Counted from the stretch's first letter, positions 9,692 to 61,142 are shown. The stretch: DNA of 64,000 nt from Acidobacteriota bacterium (GCA_040752675.1 JBFMGF010000061.1:2105-66104), one strand, 5' to 3'. Made by a program: numbers and translations. Notes: generated from the letters alone by a model not told the origin.

Positions 9692-9753
9692 GATTTTTCA
9701 TATGCGAGTGCACGCGCCTGTTAGGCCGTGCAAATTGCTTGTGCTTAGCAAAT

Positions 9754-10107
9754 CTAAAGCTTTTTATATTGCCATAAGATAATTTCATTCTCATCTGGAT
9801 CATAGCAAGGCACAAGAAAACCATTTGCTACTTCATGCAAATCAGCAGTGTGAACTCCTTTTATTTTTAGATGGTCAATTGCATCTTGAATATCGTCTAC
9901 CTTGAGGCATAATCTTGCGTTGCCATACCCTCCTATTTTTGATTTGTCGCTGCACGGAACAAGTTCAAATAAGACACCATCTGCATCAAAGCGTGCAATG
10001 ATATCTCTAGAGATCAGTCGAAAGCCAAGAACATTTTTATAAAAAGAGATTGATTTCTCGATGTCGCTGACATAGTAAAAGATGCAGTCGAATTTAAATT
10101 GTATCAA
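9754..10107 (-). CDS. VOC/glyoxalase-bleomycin resistance family protein (cassette cargo)
   Basis: 117 aa: FYYVSDIEKSISFYKNVLGFRLIS...LVPCYDPDENEIILWQ, a typical beta-alpha-beta-beta-beta VOC pattern. AT-rich gene. Confidence 0.8.
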   Translation of the reverse strand: MIQFKFDCIFYYVSDIEKSISFYKNVLGFRLISRDIIARFDADGVLFELVPCSDKSKIGGYGNARLCLKVDDIQDAIDHLKIKGVHTADLHEVANGFLVPCYDPDENEIILWQYKKL

Positions 10108-10154
10108 TTGAACGGCTCTTTCCTTTCCAGGCCTTACTTCAATGCTTTCTAAGC

Positions 10155-10242
10155 GTCTAACACTGGCACTCAGCGGCCGGCGCGGCTGTTGCTTTGCAAG
10201 AGCCGTGACGCCGAAGCTGTCAGCTTAAGCGAGTAGTTAAGC
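10155..10242 (-). repeat. attC-like structured recombination-site candidate (copy A, 88 nt)
   Basis: Minus strand reads GCTTAAC-TACTC-GCTTAAG-[TGAC(A)GC TTCG GCGTCA hairpin; GGCTCTTGC AAA GCAACAGCC hairpin]-GCTGAGT-GCCAGT-GTTAGAC. This is the RYYYAAC ... GTTRRRY layout with partially complementary arms. Confidence 0.55.
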
Positions 10243-10484
10243 ATCTTGAGATTGCGTAATTCTTTTATCTTTGAAACGAATACTTCGCCCCGGATGACGA
10301 AAAGCGAGGCAAAAAATAGTATAAGGATTGGTATGACAATCATGCTTAGAATGTAAATGATATTGCTTCTAGCGATTGTGAATAAGCAAAACATCGGTAC
10401 GCCAATAAGAATTAAAACTGAAAGTCCAGTCATCAATTTCAAGGATATGCCCCATGGCGCATTAAATACAAAATCTTGATACAT
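10170..10484 (-). CDS. Small hypothetical membrane protein (about 3 TM segments)
   Basis: 104 aa, hydrophobic (LMTGLSVLILIGVPMFCLF, IIYILSMIVIPILILFFASLFVI). The last ~24 codons run into attC-like copy A, so the C-terminus may be fortuitous. Confidence 0.5.
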   Translation of the reverse strand: MYQDFVFNAPWGISLKLMTGLSVLILIGVPMFCLFTIARSNIIYILSMIVIPILILFFASLFVIRGEVFVSKIKELRNLKMLNYSLKLTASASRLLQSNSRAGR

Positions 10485-10510
10485 GGCTACTCCTCTTTTG
10501 AATCCTGTAG

Positions 10511-10770
10511 TTATGCTCTTACTCTAATTTGTTCATAAAGAAATTCTGGAGCAAAATCAGCCCCATTTTGCCAAACCAGAGTATGCAATTCGGGATCAAC
10601 TCTAAAGCTTCTGAACATTTCCAAATCTTTCAAAGGCTCGAAGATAGGACCTTTTAATTCATCTTTTAGATTGATTTCACCTTCCGTCCCATCCGAGAAC
10701 TTGATCCAAATGGTATAGTCAGAGATATGTCTTGCTTCCTTTACACAATAGAATATTTTCTCTACTCCAC
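10511..10770 (-). pseudogene. DUF2442-like gene lacking a recognisable start codon
   Basis: My translation: ...KIFYCVKEARHISDYTIWIKFSDGTEGEINLKDELKGPIFEPLKDLEMFRSFRVDPELHTLVWQNGADFAPEFLYEQIRVRA*. No ATG/GTG/TTG lies upstream in frame (ATA sits where a start would be expected). It is absent from the ORF track. Confidence 0.5.
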
Positions 10771-10872
10771 ATGAGAGAGTGCCCGTTTTGGAAATTTGCC
10801 AGTTACAATTCCGGTTTCAATTTCATAAGTGATTTCATAATCACCGTATATAGCGTGAAAATGCGGTGGCAT
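10762..10872 (-). pseudogene. DUF4160-like gene fragment (N-terminally truncated, premature TAG)
   Basis: My translation: (NRDH)MPPHFHAIYGDYEITYEIETGIVTGKFPKRALSHVE*. The conserved PPHFHA.Y core is present but the ~20 N-terminal residues are missing. TAG stands where this family usually has W (TGG). The fragment abuts the stop of the upstream GT2-HAD gene. Confidence 0.5.
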
Positions 10873-10893
10873 ATGATCCCTGTTCGATGATTG

Positions 10894-12327
10894 TCATTCT
10901 GCAAAGTCCAGAAGCTGTGTTAGCCGCGGTTCTTCAATTCGGTAATCGGAAATGGCTCTTAGTGTTTCATTGGTGGTGCACATGGATACCCCAATTCCCG
11001 CGATCCGCACCATGCAGATGTCGGTCTCGCTATCTCCGACGGCAACGACACTTCGGAGGTCAATGGCGTGTGTGGCCGTCGCGTGAAGGAGGGCGTTGCT
11101 CTTGCAAAAGTTGTGATTACAGAGGCTGGCGTTGGACCGACAGAAATAGGAGGGGACTTTGACTTCCCCGGTTGCGACGCTTTGCGAGAACTCAAGCTCG
11201 TTTGACATTACGAAGTCAGCGTTGATCTTGGTCTTGATGTGGCTCGCAATACAATCGTAGCTGTCGGTAATAATGCCGATAACATAGCCTCTTTGTTTCA
11301 GAACGTCAGTCACTTGCAGCACGTCCTCGACAAGGGGAATGCGGTCTGCAGCAGAGAGCAGTTCCGCAATATTCTTGCCCTGAAGCAATTTGGCGATGTG
11401 TTTGGTTACCAGAAAGGAATCCTGGTTCTTGGCAATAATGTTGATGAGGTCCTGACGGAATCCGAAGAGCTGCGCGGCGAATTCGATAAAACGGCCTCGA
11501 AGAAGCGTATTGTCCATATCAAAGACAACCATCTTGCGAAGATATCTAGCGCTGTTGCGGATTGCATCATCCATGTAGTCACGAATGATTGATATGGTTT
11601 CCAGATCGTCAAGACTCGTGCGCTCCAGCTTCGTAGCTCTGGCGAGTATGGCCCGGGACACCTCCTTCGACATTCGCGTCAATTGGTGCCACGGTTTCAT
11701 CTTGTGTTCAATCTGACCAATATCGACCTCGACTATCCTTGCGCCCAAAAGGTGCATGTCTATGAGAAGGGCGATGTCCACACCATAGTCATCCTCAAAA
11801 GTGACTCTCTGAAGGAATTCGCGGCGCGCAGCGACGAGACCGCCCAGCGGTTGCGCAAAGTGAGCTACGGCGGGAAACAGGAGGCTCAGCAATGGCTTTG
11901 CGACGAGTTCGGTTACCCTTCCAGCCTCACGGGAGAACTTCGCTTTCACAAAATCGGCCTCATTGCTGAGGAGCGGCTCTACAAGGATACTAACTACGTC
12001 GGGATTCAGTTTGTCCAGATCTGCGTCGAGATAGACAATGACATCCTGCGAGGAGAGAAGAAGGCCGTCACGCATGGAGGCGCCTTTGCCGATCCTTGTG
12101 CTAGTGATGACGCTCGCACCAGCCTTCTTGGCCTCGCGCACCGTATTGTCGAATGACTTGTCATCAACAACAATCACCTCCCTCACGTTGGGGTTGAACT
12201 TAGCGATCTTGACGACCGACCCGATGGTCATCTCCTCGTTGATAGCAGGTATGATTACGCTGATCATGTTTATCGGTTTACCGAACACACCGCTAAGCTG
12301 CAGCCGAGACGGCACGATGTTTGCCAC
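10894..12327 (-). CDS. Fusion protein: GT2 glycosyltransferase (glucosyl/mannosyl-3-phosphoglycerate synthase-like) plus HAD-superfamily phosphatase
   Basis: The N-terminal half has SVIIPAINEE, VIVVDDKSFDNT, GKGASMRDGL and VYLDADL. The C-terminal half has HAD motifs VVFDMDNTLL (DxDxT), GIITDS and VGDSETD. An alternative start is ATG 12267 (MISVIIPA...), because the first 20 codons overlap attC-like copy B. Confidence 0.8.
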   Translation of the reverse strand: MANIVPSRLQLSGVFGKPINMISVIIPAINEEMTIGSVVKIAKFNPNVREVIVVDDKSFDNTVREAKKAGASVITSTRIGKGASMRDGLLLSSQDVIVYLDADLDKLNPDVVSILVEPLLSNEADFVKAKFSREAGRVTELVAKPLLSLLFPAVAHFAQPLGGLVAARREFLQRVTFEDDYGVDIALLIDMHLLGARIVEVDIGQIEHKMKPWHQLTRMSKEVSRAILARATKLERTSLDDLETISIIRDYMDDAIRNSARYLRKMVVFDMDNTLLRGRFIEFAAQLFGFRQDLINIIAKNQDSFLVTKHIAKLLQGKNIAELLSAADRIPLVEDVLQVTDVLKQRGYVIGIITDSYDCIASHIKTKINADFVMSNELEFSQSVATGEVKVPSYFCRSNASLCNHNFCKSNALLHATATHAIDLRSVVAVGDSETDICMVRIAGIGVSMCTTNETLRAISDYRIEEPRLTQLLDFAE

Positions 12328-12377
12328 CGCAAACAGCGTGACGCCGAAGGTGGCAGCTTGAGCGGGTAGTTAGAAGG
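12280..12377 (-). repeat. attC-like structured recombination-site candidate (copy B, ~96 nt)
   Basis: Minus strand reads (CC)TTCTAAC-TACCC-GCTCAAGCTGC-...-GCAGCTT_AGC-GGTGT-GTTCGGT. The L''/L' stem is 10 bp with one unpaired base, which falls as an extrahelical G on the plus (bottom) strand. The R''-L'' arm is 32/37 identical to copy A. Confidence 0.6.
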
Positions 12378-12385
12378 CTTTTAAT

Positions 12386-12586
12386 TTAACCCGCTTGATA
12401 ATGGAATGAAGAAAGTTCTTCCTCAGACATCCGAGCTTTAATACCGAGAAATTCAACGCCTACAACTCGGCCATCTTTATCAAAATCAAGAATTACACCA
12501 GGACGAACTTCTTCAGATTCTATTATTGCATTTTCATCCAAACGGAAGTAAAGAGCATCTTCTTTTTTATCAACAATCAGTCTCAT
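12386..12586 (-). CDS. DUF2283-family small protein (putative antitoxin)
   Basis: 66 aa: DALYFRLDENAIIESEEVRPGVILDFDKDGRVVGVEFLG, the typical DUF2283 pattern. It lies 17 nt downstream of the DUF4258 gene. Confidence 0.75.
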   Translation of the reverse strand: MRLIVDKKEDALYFRLDENAIIESEEVRPGVILDFDKDGRVVGVEFLGIKARMSEEELSSFHYQAG

Positions 12587-12603
12587 TATTTTCCCCTCAA
12601 GCT

Positions 12604-12822
12604 TCAGTCAAAAAAAACTGTTACTGCCCTATGCGGCTGCTTCTGCGCATCAACAATAATGCGCAGCCATCTATTCCCATGTTCTTGTATCTGACAAAGA
12701 AAATGTTGTGTGCCGTCTTCGTGGCGTTCAATCTTTTGTGGTTCTTTCAATGTTCTATCAATCCATTCTTGTCGAATTGATCGTTCTTTCATCATCTTCT
12801 TGAAGTGCTTTGTAAATATCAT
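12604..12822 (-). CDS. DUF4258-family small protein (putative toxin)
   Basis: 72 aa: FTKHFKKMMKERSIRQEWIDRTLKEP...RIIVDAQKQPHRAVTVFFD. DUF4258/DUF2283 gene pairs are predicted type II TA modules. Confidence 0.7.
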   Translation of the reverse strand: MIFTKHFKKMMKERSIRQEWIDRTLKEPQKIERHEDGTQHFLCQIQEHGNRWLRIIVDAQKQPHRAVTVFFD

Positions 12823-12978
12823 TAATCATGAGCATATACCAAATTACTAATGGCATCAAGGAAAAGCATCAACAGCTCAGATTGTCCTTCTAACGTAATA
12901 GATTATATCCAGAGTGCTTTATAAAGTAAGCAAATTTTTTAGGCAAGCACAAAGCAGGAGCACTCAGGATATGATCTC

Positions 12979-13306
12979 GTTGGACGAAGCCGCTTTGCGG
13001 CAATTACTATGGGGATTGCTTGTGGAGGAAGAGAATAAGAAATTCAGTTGAAACAAGGCACGAAAAAGTATGATGTGATGATTTCTTAGAAAAGAAGCGA
13101 TAGGATCTGGATTTTGAAAGAGAATTACCCTTTGATTCTGACATGAGGGAGGTTCCTTGTGCACCGTGAGCAGACTGGGAGCATACTCCAGGCTGGAGAT
13201 GGAGGATAAGACAGCATGGAAATAGGATGGAACAGCAGAGAAGACTTTTTATTTGGAAGGAAGTTTATCTTTGAACTGAAACTGCCGCAAAGCGGCTTAG
13301 TTCAAC
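12979..13306. repeat. 328-bp non-coding segment bounded by a 24-nt imperfect inverted repeat (MITE-like)
   Basis: 12979-13002 is GTTGGACGAAGCCGCTTTGCGGCA. 13283-13306 is TGCCGCAAAGCGGCTTAGTTCAAC, and its reverse complement matches the first at 22/24. Each end contains a GCCGC-NNN-GCGGC hairpin. The right end nests in a longer hairpin (TTGAACT at 13271-13277 with AGTTCAA at 13299-13305). Confidence 0.6.
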
Positions 13307-13421
13307 ATATAGTGAACGGAACCGTTTATTCCAATAAATAGGCGAAAAATTGCTATGAAGCACTCGCCAAGATCAAGAAATTTTTGGCTTTTAATTGCCA
13401 AATTTGCGCTAATATATAAAT

Positions 13422-14342
13422 ATGAGAGAGAGTGTTCATAAGTTCATCGAGTATTTGAGGTTCGAGAGGCACTTCTCGGAAGAGACCTGCCGGAGTTACC
13501 TCTCGGACCTCGCACAGTTCGCCCGGTTCCTGGACAGCGAGTTCGATCCAGGAAAGAAGCACAAAGCTGAGGATGTTGACGTTCTGGCTGTGCGAGGTTT
13601 CGTTGGATTCCTCCATCGGACGGGAAAGAAGAAGTCATCTATCGAAAGGAAGATCGTCTCGCTCAGGTCGTTCTTCAAATTCCTCTGTCGGGAAGGAGTT
13701 CTGAACGCCAATCCGGCCGCATCGGTTACTCTTCCGAAAAAGGAGAGGCGACTTCCGAAGCATCTCTCCGTCGATGAGGTCTTCCATCTTCTCGACACGC
13801 CTGATAAGGCATCACCGCAAGGAGCAAGAGATTCGGCGATACTCGAGCTCCTATATGCAACCGGGATGCGAGTCAGCGAGCTCGTCGAGCTGAGCCTCAA
13901 CGACGTTGACATCACAGAGATGACTGTGCGCGTCATGGGAAAGGGGAAGAAGGAAAGGCTCCTTCCTTTCGGGAGCAAGGCAAGAGACACCCTGCAAAAT
14001 TACCTCCGGCTGATGAGCCCCGTTCGGGATTGGGCAAAGTCTGCCGATGCCCTCTTTCTCAGCATGCGGGGAGGAAGGCTAACGGCCCGGAGCATCAGGA
14101 GGATCATCAACATTCATATTTCCAGGGCTTCCATTGCAACGAAGATTTCTCCGCATTCCATAAGGCATTCCTTCGCCACGCATCTTCTGAACGCCGGAGC
14201 AGACTTGCGCGCCATTCAGGAGATGCTCGGTCACGCTTCCCTGTCCACGACGCAGAAGTACACGCACATGGACGCAACGAAGCTAATGGAGATCTACGAT
14301 AAGTCCCACCCGAGGGCTCGCATCCCTTCTTCTGAACGATGA
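13422..14342 (+). CDS. xerC: Tyrosine site-specific recombinase, XerC/XerD type
   Basis: 306 aa: FIEYLRFERHFSEETCRSYLSDL, ARDSAILELLYATGMRVSEL, GKGKKERLLPF, HSIRHSFATHLL and LGHASLSTTQKYTH (R-K-H-R-H-Y catalytic set). The spacing between the GKGxKER and HxxRH boxes is ~65 aa, as in Xer proteins and not IntI. Confidence 0.9.
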   Translation: MRESVHKFIEYLRFERHFSEETCRSYLSDLAQFARFLDSEFDPGKKHKAEDVDVLAVRGFVGFLHRTGKKKSSIERKIVSLRSFFKFLCREGVLNANPAASVTLPKKERRLPKHLSVDEVFHLLDTPDKASPQGARDSAILELLYATGMRVSELVELSLNDVDITEMTVRVMGKGKKERLLPFGSKARDTLQNYLRLMSPVRDWAKSADALFLSMRGGRLTARSIRRIINIHISRASIATKISPHSIRHSFATHLLNAGADLRAIQEMLGHASLSTTQKYTHMDATKLMEIYDKSHPRARIPSSER

Positions 14343-33058: not shown

Positions 33059-33721
33059 TTAGGCAATTTCAATCACTGAAACGAACGAAGAACGCCTTCC
33101 CGGGAGTAAAAACTCTTCATGTCTTAGCTTCACTGTGAGTTCAGGCTGGTCAAGCACTGAAAGATCGCTTCTGCCTGCATAAATGAATGCTCTTCCATTC
33201 TTCTTTAGAATAGATGGAAAGTCGATGAGCATGTCCGCCGAGACCCTCACTCCCCTCATGGTCAAATAATCAAATCTCTCCCCCCATGCAATGTCTGAAA
33301 GCCTGTTCAGTCTGCAGTTGATGATTTCTACATCTTTCAATCCCAGTTCTCTTACAGCAGCATTCAAGAAATGGCACTTTCGTTTCCTGCCTTCAACCAT
33401 AACAAGTTTCAGTTCAGGGAATGCAATCTTGATTGGCAGTGCGGGAAAGCCGTTGCCGCTACCTATATCGAGCAGCTGTCCCCTGCGGCTTATCCGTGGC
33501 AGAATAAAGAGTGATTCTGCAAAGTGTCTGTCTGCTATCTCATCTGGATCTTTTATAGCGGTGAGATTAATCGTCTTCTGCCATTTGATTAAAAGAGTAT
33601 AAAAACGATGAAGTTGATCAAACGGAATCCATTTAGCAGAGATGCCCCTCATCTCCAGAGTCTTCTCCAAAATCTCTTCAAAGCCTTTATTTCTGCTGCT
33701 CAAGTTCTCGCTTTCTCTCAA
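33059..33721 (-). CDS. rsmG: 16S rRNA (guanine527-N7)-methyltransferase
   Basis: [17 protein letters not shown] and [17 protein letters not shown]. Conserved position after mnmG. Confidence 0.9.
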
Positions 33722-35588
33722 TCTCTCTTTTCCTCAGATAGACTGATAGAATGAATATTGCAGCAGGAGTGACTCCTGATATTCTGGATGCCTGACCGAG
33801 GCTTTCAGGCCTGACCTTCTCAAGCTTTTCAATCACCTCGGAAGAAAGGCCCGGAATGCCCCTGAAGACGAAATCCTGAGGTATCTTCTTTTTTTCCTCT
33901 CTGGCAATCCGCAACGCTTCCTTTTCCTGCCGCTCTATGTACCCTCTATATTTAAGTTCCTCTTCGACGATCTTTATCTCTTCATCTTTCATTCCTGCCG
34001 GAATGATCTCTTGCAATGCAGAAGCAATATGGGCAAACTTTACTTCAGGTCTCTTGATAATATCTGAAGCTCTTTTCTCTGAGAGATCAGGCTTCTCCTT
34101 ATTTTCCGATGGCAACGGTTTGAAATCGCGGCTGGATATCATCACCTGGACCATACCCTTCTTGAGTTTCTCAATCCTCTCCCATTTCTTCACGAACCTA
34201 TAGTATCTATCATCGCATACTAACCCCAGAAACTTACCCTTGGAGGTTAATCTCTTATCTGCAGTATCGATCCCGAGCAGTAGCCTGAATTCCGCGCGAG
34301 ATGTGAACATACGGTAAGGTTCCAACGTCCCCTTCGTAACCAGATCATCGATCAAGACTCCTATATAAGCATCCGAACGTGAAAGGATAAAGGGTTCGGC
34401 TTTCTTCAACTTAAGAGCTGCATTGATTCCTGCCAACAAGCCTAGGGCCGCTGCCTCCTCGTAACCCGTGGTCCCGTTGATCTGCCCGGCCAGATAAAGA
34501 TTTTCTATCCTTTTAGTTTCAAGAGTCTGACGGAGCTCCATCGGATCAACAAAATCATACTCGATCGCGTAACCGAATTTCGAGATCTCGGCGCTTTCGA
34601 GCCCCTTGATACCATGAACCATCTCGATCTGGATTTCAGCGGGAAGACTGGTCGAAAATCCGTTTAAATATATCTCTTCAGATGCGAGCCCTTCAGGCTC
34701 AAGAAAGATCTGGTGCCTTTCTCTATCAGAGAAACGGACGACTTTATCCTCGATTGATGGACAGTACCTAGGCCCTCTCGATTTGATGATACCAGTATAT
34801 AAGGGGGATTTATCCAGGGATTCCCGAATAAGAGAATGCAGGGAAGGGTTGGTAAATGCGATGTAACATGGTACCTGCCGTAACGCAAAAGAATCGGTGT
34901 TATATGAGAAAAATACTGGTTCTTCATCCCCCTCCTGAGCTTCAAATCTGGAGAAATCTATCGAACCCTTCTTCAATCTGGGTGAGGTACCTGTTTTCAA
35001 TCGCTGGACTCTGAAGCCAAGCATCTTCAATGATCCAGATAGCTGGGCCGATTCCCTTTCTCCGTAACGTCCGCCTGGAAAATGATCGAGCCCGATATGG
35101 ATCAATCCGTTAAGGAATGTGCCGGTTGCAAGGATCACCGCCTCCGAGGCAAACATCCGTCCGTCCTCAAGCAATATACCCTTAACCTTGCTACTCGACA
35201 CCAGTATTTCAGCTACGACGCCTTCAATCAGACAGAGATTCTTTTGCCCGACAAGAATCTTTTTAATCTCTTCCTGATACTTCTCTTTATCCTCCTGCGC
35301 TCGCGGAGCTCTGACTGCCGGGCCTTTGCTCCTGTTCAAAAGCCTGAATTGAATTCCGGTCCTGTCGGCAATTTTTCCTATTTCCCCCCCGAGAGCATCG
35401 ATCTCCCTTACAATATGCCCTTTAGCCAGCCCGCCCACGGCCGGATTGCAGGACATTCGGGCGATGGAATCTAGATCCATCGTTACAAGCGCCGTTTCAA
35501 TCCCCATCCTTGCAGTTGCAAGCGCAGCCTCACACCCGGCATGACCTCCTCCAACGACAATGACTCTGAAAATTCCTTCTATCATCAC
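33687..35588 (-). CDS. mnmG: tRNA uridine 5-carboxymethylaminomethyl modification enzyme MnmG (GidA)
   Basis: [43 protein letters not shown] and [11 protein letters not shown]. Confidence 0.97.
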
Positions 35589-59640: not shown

Positions 59641-60095
59641 CAGAGGGATTTACGCAAGTCATTGAAAATGCGTGAATCTCTTTTTTTATGAATCACTTGC
59701 CATTGTTTCTGATTTAGTTTCTGTCAGGTCTATTCAGGTCTGTTTAGGTGTGTCATGGACACCATATGGACACCACTTTTTGTCCTTATAAAAGACAAAA
59801 AAACAGGAGCCCTATCCTCCCATATTTACCCAAAATAGTTTTTAGGACAGAAGCTCCTTTGAAACTTTTAATATATTTTATACAGCTCTTATCAAGGTAA
59901 AACAATTAAAATTTCTAGATCAAGAATTTCATTCACAGCTATGTCATGAACACTGCCCTGTAATATTTAATTTTCTCAGCTTAGCCTTTTTAATACTGCT
60001 TTCTGAATTACGGAGAATCTATCTTTTGCTGCAAAGTCTTTATATAAACTTTCAGTCAAGGAGCCCTTTGGATAATTTGTTTTTTCTTGAATAGC

Positions 60096-60989
60096 GGGTT
60101 GCACCAATAACATCGTGGACTAAATCCTAATGCTCAGGAAACCAATAACATCGTGGACTAATCGATACTTTTTATCTATCCAATGAAAGCAAGGGATCAA
60201 TAATTGGACCTCTAACTGGAAAAGAGAATGATTTGATAATCTTGTTTTCATATTTGACACCAGTTTTCCTCTATGAGTCACAACGGTAGCAATCACACAC
60301 TGGCCTTCCAGTTTTCTTCTGATGAAATAAGTGGCTCCATTGACCTCGATGCGACCATGAGGATCCACTTTCCTGACAAAGGAGACCTTTCCCCTGGCCA
60401 CGAGAAGATTGAGATGATGCTTGGCATCCATGTATTGTTCGAGGGTAAATCCCTCTGGCAGGTGTCTGAGAGTTGTCCAGAGACGATCTCGAAGGACTCC
60501 TGGGAATCTCGTTCCATGCTCTTTTTGTGTGAGACTCCTGTGGGGTTTCTCATAGTGGTAATACCGCAAGAACTGGTCTGTCTTTCTCTTGAGCACAGTC
60601 CGAGTTGGGCAGCGATGCCTTCTGAGTACCCGATCCTGCCAGAGGTTGTTAAAACTCTCCACCGAGGCATTTCTCCCAGGTTCTCCTTTGGTAGAAATGG
60701 AAGGAATGTGACGAACTCTTCTTTGTTGAAGCTCCCAGTGAATGACTTCAGCTCCGATTCCAGAGAAGGCAGAGCGCCTGCTCTTGCTTCGATGAATCCA
60801 TTGAAGGATTTTACAAGGGCCTTTTCCTTGCTTGTAAAGTTGTATTGCTTGACAGCGTTTCTCATAATCGCTTTGAATCTTCATCGCCATTTTCTCCTTC
60901 CAAAAAGTTTTGGAAGAAGTTTAGGCGATGTTGATTTTAGTCTACTATGTGATTAGTTTTTTTAGTCCACGATGTTATTGGTGCAACCC
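60096..60989 (-). mobile_element. Internally deleted IS element with perfect 29-bp terminal inverted repeats
   Basis: GGGTTGCACCAATAACATCGTGGACTAAA at 60096-60124 has its exact reverse complement at 60961-60989. A 21-nt subterminal part (ACCAATAACATCGTGGACTAA) is repeated at 60141-60161. The element is only ~0.9 kb. Confidence 0.8.
60120..60890 (-). pseudogene. rve-type (IS3/IS481-like) transposase remnant lacking most of the DDE core
   Basis: The 256-aa ORF has an N-terminal HTH-like AIQLYKQGKGPCKILQW, then jumps to the end of an integrase core (GEPGRNASVESFNNLWQD, YHYEKPHRSL) and a C-terminal VSFVRKVDPHGRIEVNGATYFI segment. The first two catalytic Asp regions are not recognisable. Confidence 0.55.
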
Positions 60990-61142
60990 ACTAATTCTTA
61001 TCCTTCCCATTTCTGGAATCTGTCAGGGTGATGAAAATGTTTAATGTATCCTGGGCGACTGCCACGATTGAGAATGACAACAGATGAAATTCTTTGAGAT
61101 TTTTTTATGAATTTGGGGTTAAATAAATAGAGAGGATAGTAG

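Follow-up and report, generated by a model that had tools for sequence, protein, structure and literature searches.

What kind of DNA fills the interval between topA and xerC in a 64,000-nt stretch from an Acidobacteriota bacterium (GCA_040752675.1, JBFMGF010000061.1:2105-66104), and where did it come from? In this stretch, hereafter the window, with positions counted from its first letter, the two genes are separated by a 3.7-kb island of low GC content that carries two related palindromic elements, A and B, on the minus strand, which is also the cassette-coding strand. An earlier note had read the island as an integron-type gene-cassette array with attC sites and no integron integrase (IntI), at best a group of clustered attC sites without an integron integrase (CALIN) or else a non-canonical system. 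The core of that reading stands, as the structure of the attC family, the exchange of neighbouring DNA at G|TT and two covariance models agree. We put the probability at roughly 0.86 that the island is a small, decaying integron gene-cassette array with two attC sites and no integron integrase, that is, a CALIN (Cury et al. 2016). By the published definition, a CALIN has two or more attC sites on one strand, spaced by less than 4 kb, and no intI in the vicinity (PMC4889954). A and B lie on the same strand with a start-to-start distance of 2133 nt, and the only tyrosine recombinase in the 64 kb is XerC, so the island falls within this definition. The CALIN is an already known kind of element, and the array is another member of it rather than a new system; a non-canonical system does not need to be invoked.

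Two palindromic elements in a low-GC island

The open reading frames (ORFs) of the cassettes have a GC content of 0.36-0.41, compared to 0.492 for the window and 0.52-0.54 for topA and xerC, which puts figures on the AT-richness that had been noticed by eye in parts of the block. Inside this low-GC island, the palindromes A and B are GC-rich (0.54-0.59). Integron integrases recognise the folded bottom strand of an attC site, with extrahelical bases setting the strand choice; here the attC top strand is the minus strand of the window and the bottom strand is the plus strand.

Site B (12375->12280, minus strand, 96 nt) lies directly after an ORF and is apparently intact. It consists of R'' TTCTAAC, a 5-nt spacer, L'' GCT-C-AAGCTGC, a variable hairpin, L' GCAGCTT-AGC, a second 5-nt spacer and R' GTTCGGT. 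Site A (10242->10155, minus strand, 88 nt), also directly after an ORF, runs from R'' GCTTAAC to R' GTTAGAC and has a mispaired L box. Both elements have RYYYAAC-like and GTTRRRY-like ends with complementary AAC and GTT, and the order of boxes proposed before (R'', 5 nt, L'', then L', spacer, R') is seen in both. A 35-nt arm pattern common to A and B has two matches in 64 kb, both in the island, and none in 100 shuffles, and a repeat finder gave arms of 36 nt with 89% identity, in line with the coordinates and arm similarity reported earlier. Of the four TAACTAC motifs on the minus strand of the window, three lie within the island, each of these straight after a cassette ORF.

Folded as single-stranded DNA, the bottom strand of B reached -29.1 kcal/mol (z = -5.5). 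In the hairpin that it can form in this prediction, 4 bp make up the R box, the spacer stays unpaired, a G is extrahelical in the L box and the terminal hairpin is variable. The unpaired base of the top strand is at position 16, which puts the extrahelical base on the bottom strand, as the earlier note had stated. The bottom strand of A folds weakly (-21.9 kcal/mol, z = -2.1) and its L box is mispaired. The combination of spacer and extrahelical base is found in B and in the metagenomic copies described below, and not cleanly in A.

An attC family in metagenomes

Copies of the element in metagenomes came from one scan with a degenerate arm pattern, which returned eight contigs. Full-length 95-nt copies are present on L081, L082, L084, L085 and L088, while L083, L086 and L087 were rejected as family members, being chance matches in GC-rich DNA. 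A second attC subtype (type 2), 97 nt long, is located at L081:1345-1441, and A, B and the metagenomic family together span 88-97 nt, inside the range of roughly 55-140 nt for attC sites. B is identical to the metagenomic type 1 attC at 79/89 positions. In the consensus of an eight-sequence alignment, the R box has 4 bp (TAAC/GTTA), spacers of 4-5 nt are left unpaired on either side, column 16 is unpaired within the L box (C or T on the top strand, G or A on the bottom) and the terminal hairpin is variable. Paired cells account for 96.9% of this alignment, compared to 24-58% when the 3' partners are slid by 1-3 columns; changes on both sides occur in 8/29 pairs, and the observed values were reached in none of 500 shuffles. 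R-box pairs are kept in 93.8% of cells across the family and compensatory changes are found in 6 of the 14 terminal-helix pairs. The family consensus is a textbook attC with covariation.

The register is also that of ten plasmid attCs of class 1 integrons (aac(6')-Ib, blaVIM-2, qacG2, cmlA5, qacF, aadA1, aadA2, dfrA12, dfrA14 and qnrVC4). Their 5' half has a 7-nt R'', a 5-nt spacer, 3 bp, one extrahelical base and a stem, as in B and the family, and their 3' half follows in the same register with stem, 3 bp, a 5-6-nt spacer and a 7-nt R'. On the top strand, which is also the coding strand of the upstream ORF, the extra base belongs to the 5' arm, again as in B. The L boxes are alike as well (GCTCAAGCTGC / GCAGCTTAGC here, GTTCAAGCCGAC / GCGGCTTAAC in attC-aadA1). 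The elements described here differ from aadA1, aadA2 and cmlA in their length of 95-96 nt, their longer terminal hairpin and the weaker R box of B (TTCTAAC / GTTCGGT).

Two covariance models were applied to the window. The first (R1) was built from six metagenomic attC copies only, with the sequences of the window excluded, and was run with filters off. It matched B with 82.3 bits (E 6e-26) and A with 53.0 bits (E 1e-15), both on the minus strand, with several non-standard pairs in the alignment of A; the rest of the window scored at most 11.5 bits, apart from weaker mirror matches of A and B on the plus strand. The second (R3) was derived from eight class 1 attCs in full length and stands in for the IntegronFinder model; it took the place of a model of class 1 attC arms only (R2), which was discarded after missing its own seeds longer than 72 nt. 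R3 found the held-out controls gcuF (48.6 bits), dfrA14 (31.9 bits, E 2e-5) and qnrVC4, which is of the Vibrio cholerae repeat (VCR) type (21.4 bits, E 0.006). In the window it gave three matches with E <= 10, among which A ranked first (18.0 bits, E 0.045) and B third (11.2 bits, E 2.1), both at their exact coordinates and strand. R3 scored members of the metagenomic family at 13.7-30.4 bits (best E 4e-5), while its top score in 95 kb of DNA from relatives was 10.4 bits. With this crude model B alone is not significant; it is the agreement in coordinates, along with the values reached by its close family members, on which we take its attC assignment as secure.

Cassettes are bounded by the position at which the integrase acts. 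IntI cuts the R box between the two A's and the C, that is, at G|TT on the top strand. L081 and L088 have 707 nt in common at 99.2% identity, preceded in L081 by an attC of type 2 and in L088 by one of type 1, and the identity starts at (C)GTTATAAGC. The attC that they share downstream is followed by different DNA and different cassettes after GTTAGCA. By comparison of the two contigs, these junctions appear to be those expected for a crossover at G|TT.

Could A and B instead be species-specific palindromes of the repetitive extragenic palindrome (REP) or miniature inverted-repeat transposable element (MITE) kind, or bidirectional terminators, that happen to end in AAC...GTT? Both are GC-rich intergenic palindromes after ORFs, A folds weakly, B alone is not significant with R3 and Rfam had no match in the window, all of which such an explanation would accommodate. 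It would not account for the restriction of the repeat to two copies in 64 kb, both on one strand of the island, for the register shared with class 1 attCs and the R3 values reached by family members, or for metagenomic copies that occur only between small cassette-type ORFs and whose neighbours swap exactly at G|TT. The element was found neither in 80 related topA loci nor in the xerC loci of relatives, and in none of 91 fetched loci except the cassette-array contigs. The terminator-like sites called in the island include neither of the two palindromes. We therefore regard a REP-like, MITE-like or terminator origin as very improbable.

In the metagenomic contigs, the attC family is highly homogeneous across different cassettes, with a cargo of RelB/ParE and RelB/YafQ pairs, an HNH nuclease and a LexA-like protein. 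Further searches gave no match: blastn of the attC against plasmids, an attC scan of viral contigs, a protein database search with the six attC-encoded peptide frames concatenated, and an arm-pattern scan of a genome-contig collection that does not contain the source genome (0 matches).

Comparison with the two metagenomic subtypes also clarified site A. Its 5' part (first 62 aligned bases) is identical to the type 1 attC at 57/62 positions, and its 3' part (last 23 bases) to the type 2 attC at 21/23. As judged from these alignments, A is chimeric: its 5' arm and centre belong to attC subtype 1 and its 3' arm to subtype 2, and its L'' and L' boxes mismatch each other as a result. Because the L box is mispaired, A is probably not recombinogenic and represents a dead site. 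The earlier identification of A as an attC is thus right as to family and coordinates, and needs amending in that the site is chimeric and probably inactive. A most simply arose through a deletion that joined two neighbouring attCs within their similar GC-rich centres, which we consider its probable origin.

One metagenomic copy is associated with a transposase gene. L085 is identical to L081 for 776 nt, up to GTGCTAACC, and continues with IS110-family DNA. At L085:776-2308, a DEDD IS110-family transposase gene starts immediately behind GTGCTAAC|C, the R'' box of a type 2 attC that is intact in L081. Some IS1111-family elements target one end of attC sites (PMC11187229), and the insertion in L085 resembles this targeting; since its other end is off the contig, the case for an IS110-family insertion at attC is suggestive only.

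The neighbouring xerC and the locus in relatives

The gene that bounds the island, xerC (13422..14342, plus strand), encodes a housekeeping tyrosine recombinase and lies outside the element. Its product scores 351.6 bits with the XerC model TIGR02224 (cutoff 335.15) and 129 bits with the integron integrase model TIGR02249 (cutoff 265). A tblastn search of the window with a true IntI returned xerC alone, at 27% identity, in agreement with the earlier statement that no IntI is present. The NCBIfam cutoffs and the synteny of the locus ruled out the neighbouring recombinase as a cryptic IntI. None of the components of a complete integron (intI with its extra domain, attI, Pc promoter) was found in the window, and the array would now be inert unless IntI were supplied in trans, be it by another part of the genome or by an element that comes in.

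The position of xerC, adjoining the array and pointing away from it as intI does in classical integrons, together with the absence of IntI from the window, raises the question of whether this divergently oriented XerC-type recombinase services the array without IntI, as in Xer-dependent modules like pdif or integrative mobile elements exploiting Xer (IMEX). Were this so, or were site C (described below) to serve as an orphan docking site resembling attI, the cassettes would form a system that depends on Xer or needs no integrase. Both ideas seem barely conceivable to us: the protein passes the XerC equivalog cutoff and fails the integrase model, the gene order xerC-suhB-pdxA-hfq-dus is kept in relatives that have no cassettes, and the boundaries in the array follow attC rules and not those of 28-bp XerC/D sites. 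No dif-like match was found in the window with E. coli dif and a loose consensus as patterns, from which the dif of the host lineage may differ.

TopA of the window is at most 60% identical to that of Acidobacteriota metagenome-assembled genomes (Thermoanaerobaculia, Polarisedimenticolaceae), for which reason the host is probably an uncultured lineage related to Acidobacteriota. In 80 Acidobacteriota topA loci at this distance (TopA <=60%), dprA-topA is kept and xerC is not downstream, and these loci are too distant for a comparison of the interval. Closer relatives (L089, L090 and L091) were found through XerC. L090 (72% identity; L090:7132-10000 compared) has the order dprA-topA-yoaP-trmFO-xerC-suhB-pdxA-hfq-dus, and L091 (L091:3-1095 compared) has trmFO-xerC-suhB, with pdxA-hfq-dus farther downstream past two unrelated genes. 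The comparison of the topA-xerC interval that the earlier note had called for thus shows trmFO and no cassettes at this place in L090 and L091. In the 64-kb window trmFO is absent, the sole match being its paralogue mnmG/gidA at 33687-35588; since both flanks are kept and trmFO is missing, the island (9692-13421) replaced trmFO.

The third relative, L089 (77% identity), encodes a true IntI on the cassette strand (L089:318-1439, minus; TIGR02249, 473 bits), at a distance of 4.3 kb upstream of xerC. In the IntI clade to which it belongs (L089 and L092-L096), the attI region is downstream of the 3' end of intI and has TATACTGC...GCAGTATA repeats. L094, L095 and L096 have identical intI-attI regions and diverge right after GTTAG into three different first cassettes, which indicates live cassette turnover. 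Because L089 has IntI near xerC, we favour a relic origin, in which the array would most likely descend from a chromosomal integron at the xerC-adjacent position that replaced trmFO; a single relative is thin evidence for this.

A second route to the same element is possible, though we hold it to be clearly short of an even chance: an IntI from elsewhere, or a transient one, may have inserted cassettes at a secondary site (attC x attG), with decay following. Experiments have demonstrated this route, and it has been put forward for CALINs of small size; just two cassettes are present in 1362 of 2961 CALINs. In 95% of CALINs, no recognisable intI pseudogene lies nearby (Cury et al. 2016). The window likewise lacks an attI or intI remnant, and site C, which ends in GTTAGAA, could be the genomic target. 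Insertions of single attC sites lacking integron-integrases (SALIN) at attG (Loot et al., bioRxiv 2022.09.11.507474) are similar in that chromosomal cassettes lie away from an integron platform; they differ in that more than one cassette is present here, the native trmFO is missing and no distal attC is intact. Against the second route, the absence of trmFO implies that more was replaced than a simple insertion would account for, and a recent attC x attG insertion should have left an intact attC at the end of the array, which neither end has. In addition, intI is complete in the closest of the available relatives, where it lies in the equivalent xerC-adjacent neighbourhood and shares its strand with the cassettes.

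Several observations weigh against reading the island as a decaying integron gene-cassette array. First, site A is structurally compromised, which leaves one clearly sound attC. Second, R3 gives B only 11.2 bits (E 2.1, rank 3 of 3), which is not significant by itself. Third, no member of the attC family was found beside an IntI among the metagenomic contigs that carry it, all of which are at most 2.6 kb long, and the contigs of the IntI-bearing relatives end before any attC. Lastly, neither an attI nor an intI pseudogene was detected in the window by nucleotide similarity to the attI of relatives or by tblastn, including the 530-bp non-coding stretch beside xerC, so that descent in situ is drawn from a single relative.

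Cassettes, cargo and decay

The cargo is cassette-typical, as proposed before, and Pfam matches agree. Cassette 1 (12892->12281, minus strand, 612 bp) ends with attC B and encodes DUF4258 (12822-12604, minus; Pfam E 3.6e-13) and DUF2283 (12586-12386, minus; Pfam E 1.8e-16), a putative toxin-antitoxin (TA)-like pair (12386..12822) whose ORFs have a GC content of 0.37-0.39. Its start GTTAGAAGG (12893->12885) is complementary at 9/9 positions to its own R'' CCTTCTAAC (12377->12369), as had been observed, and it appears to be the sole unit with clean boundaries.

Starting 13 nt after the R' box of B is a gene for a fusion of a GT2 glycosyltransferase and a HAD phosphatase (10894..12267, minus strand; Pfam Glycos_transf_2 and HAD). 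Its GC content of 0.519 is host-like, unlike that of its neighbours. The product scores 196.9 bits with the NCBIfam model for glucosyl-3-phosphoglycerate synthase, under the cutoff of 262; with its HAD-IB phosphatase, the protein could be a one-protein route to a glucosylglycerate-type solute.

The GT2-HAD gene has no attC of its own, and its stop codon directly abuts a truncated DUF4160 gene. This gene belongs to a decayed DUF4160/DUF2442 cassette (10507..10872, minus strand) made up of the DUF4160 fragment (10872-10762, minus; Pfam profile positions 8-50 of 65 only), DUF2442 (about 10750-10511, minus; Pfam profile positions 3-70 of 72) and an attC remnant. The DUF2442 stop falls in a 10-nt sequence, GCATAACTAC (10516->10507), that is unique in the window and matches the opening 10 nt of the attC on L082 at every position, corresponding to R'' and the first 3 spacer bases of a type 1 attC. 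On the strength of this identity, we read GCATAACTAC as a truncated attC. A small hydrophobic ORF of 104 aa without a Pfam match follows (10170..10484, minus strand), with a frame that runs into attC A; an unrelated ORF on L081 has the same attC-encoded peptide frame at its end. Between B and A, the 2.1-kb stretch may thus represent a fusion of at least three former cassettes (GT2-HAD, DUF4160/DUF2442 and the small membrane ORF) whose attCs were deleted.

The last cassette, which starts after the R' box of A, carries a VOC/glyoxalase gene (9754..10107, minus strand; Pfam Glyoxalase E 2e-12; GC 0.362). No attC follows it: GCCTAAC, taken earlier for the box at the end of this cassette, is part of a short hairpin of 12 bp (fold z about -2.1 to -2.3), located 28 nt from the stop codon of topA. 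The R'' box proposed for the GT2-HAD cassette, ATCGAAC, lies within the coding homology of the truncated DUF4160 and is therefore probably no R'' box. Two of the three cassette start/end pairings in the earlier note, those of VOC and GT2-HAD, are probably coincidental.

Promoter-like sites in the island were not above chance (5 found, 6.2 expected). None was called at the first junction, where a TATAAT (12907-12902) had been pointed out, and expression of the cassettes would be unable to rely on a Pc promoter. In integrons, a cassette leaves as a circle when two attC sites recombine, and it is inserted when attC recombines with attI. With IntI in trans, cassette 1 would use B as its distal site, and B x A recombination would be impaired by the defective L box of A.

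Site C and other repeats

A simple AAC...GTT scan located a further element, site C (12985->12888, minus strand), an imperfect, AT-rich palindrome of 98 nt whose terminal GTTAGAA is the point at which cassette 1 begins. It folds with z -3.9 on both strands. As a third attC it is unsupported by R1 and R3, and its bulges are on the opposite arm from those of A and B; nor does it align to the attI of the related IntI clade. It may be an attC, either atypical or decayed, a site of secondary insertion, or else the promoter/operator region that serves the TA pair. A 328-bp non-coding segment (12979..13306) is bounded by 27-nt inverted repeats that are 89% complementary, each with a hairpin GCCGCTTTGCGGC. 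Its outer ends are GTTGGAC / GTTCAAC, and it could be a MITE-like element or a non-coding cassette; no further copy was found in the window or in the fetched loci.

Elsewhere in the window, 33-nt inverted repeats (97% complementary) at 60092-60124 and 60961-60993 flank an ORF with an rve_3 integrase core (60120-60890, minus strand), which looks like a small insertion sequence (IS). Three 41-nt direct repeats with 102-nt spacing (2094-2338) lie within a minus-strand ORF (1067-2923); they are also matched by a TPR protein of L089 and are probably coding repeats.

Relation to known cassette arrays

As in other CALINs (Cury et al. 2016), the array has at least two attCs on the same strand less than 4 kb apart, no intI nearby and no recognisable intI pseudogene, and its cassettes are unrelated to clinical resistance cassettes. 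It differs in being very small and visibly decayed, with one chimeric attC, at least two deleted attCs and one truncated gene. Sedentary chromosomal integrons, such as the VCR arrays of Vibrio, resemble it in their homogeneous attC family, their cargo of TA systems and small ORFs and their chromosomal location; unlike these, the array of the window has two recognisable sites and no integrase. In 'inverted' integrons, such as that of Treponema denticola, the integrase gene is oriented like the cassettes. The IntI clade of L089 is alike, with attI downstream of the 3' end of intI, and the orientation of the cassettes in the window fits such an integron once located beside xerC, though the window contains neither intI nor the attI motifs of the clade.

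With 2961 CALINs in 21,105 RefSeq genomes, nearly half of them with two sites, and with both CALIN origins, intI loss and secondary-site (attG) insertion, documented, these elements are common, and the significance of one more array goes little beyond cataloguing. What this one illustrates is array decay, with two subtypes combined in a chimeric attC, cassettes fused by attC deletion and a cassette gene that is truncated, and the overwriting of a conserved housekeeping interval, topA-(trmFO)-xerC, by cassettes. Chromosomal attCs of Acidobacteria have already been modelled (Ghaly et al. 2021). Taken with the intI that L089 has beside xerC, the array suggests that an uncultured Acidobacteriota-like group harbours a lineage of chromosomal integrons in which attI is downstream of intI. 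Through the array, the 95-nt environmental attC family is also connected to a host lineage, which could help to assign metagenomic cassettes to a host.

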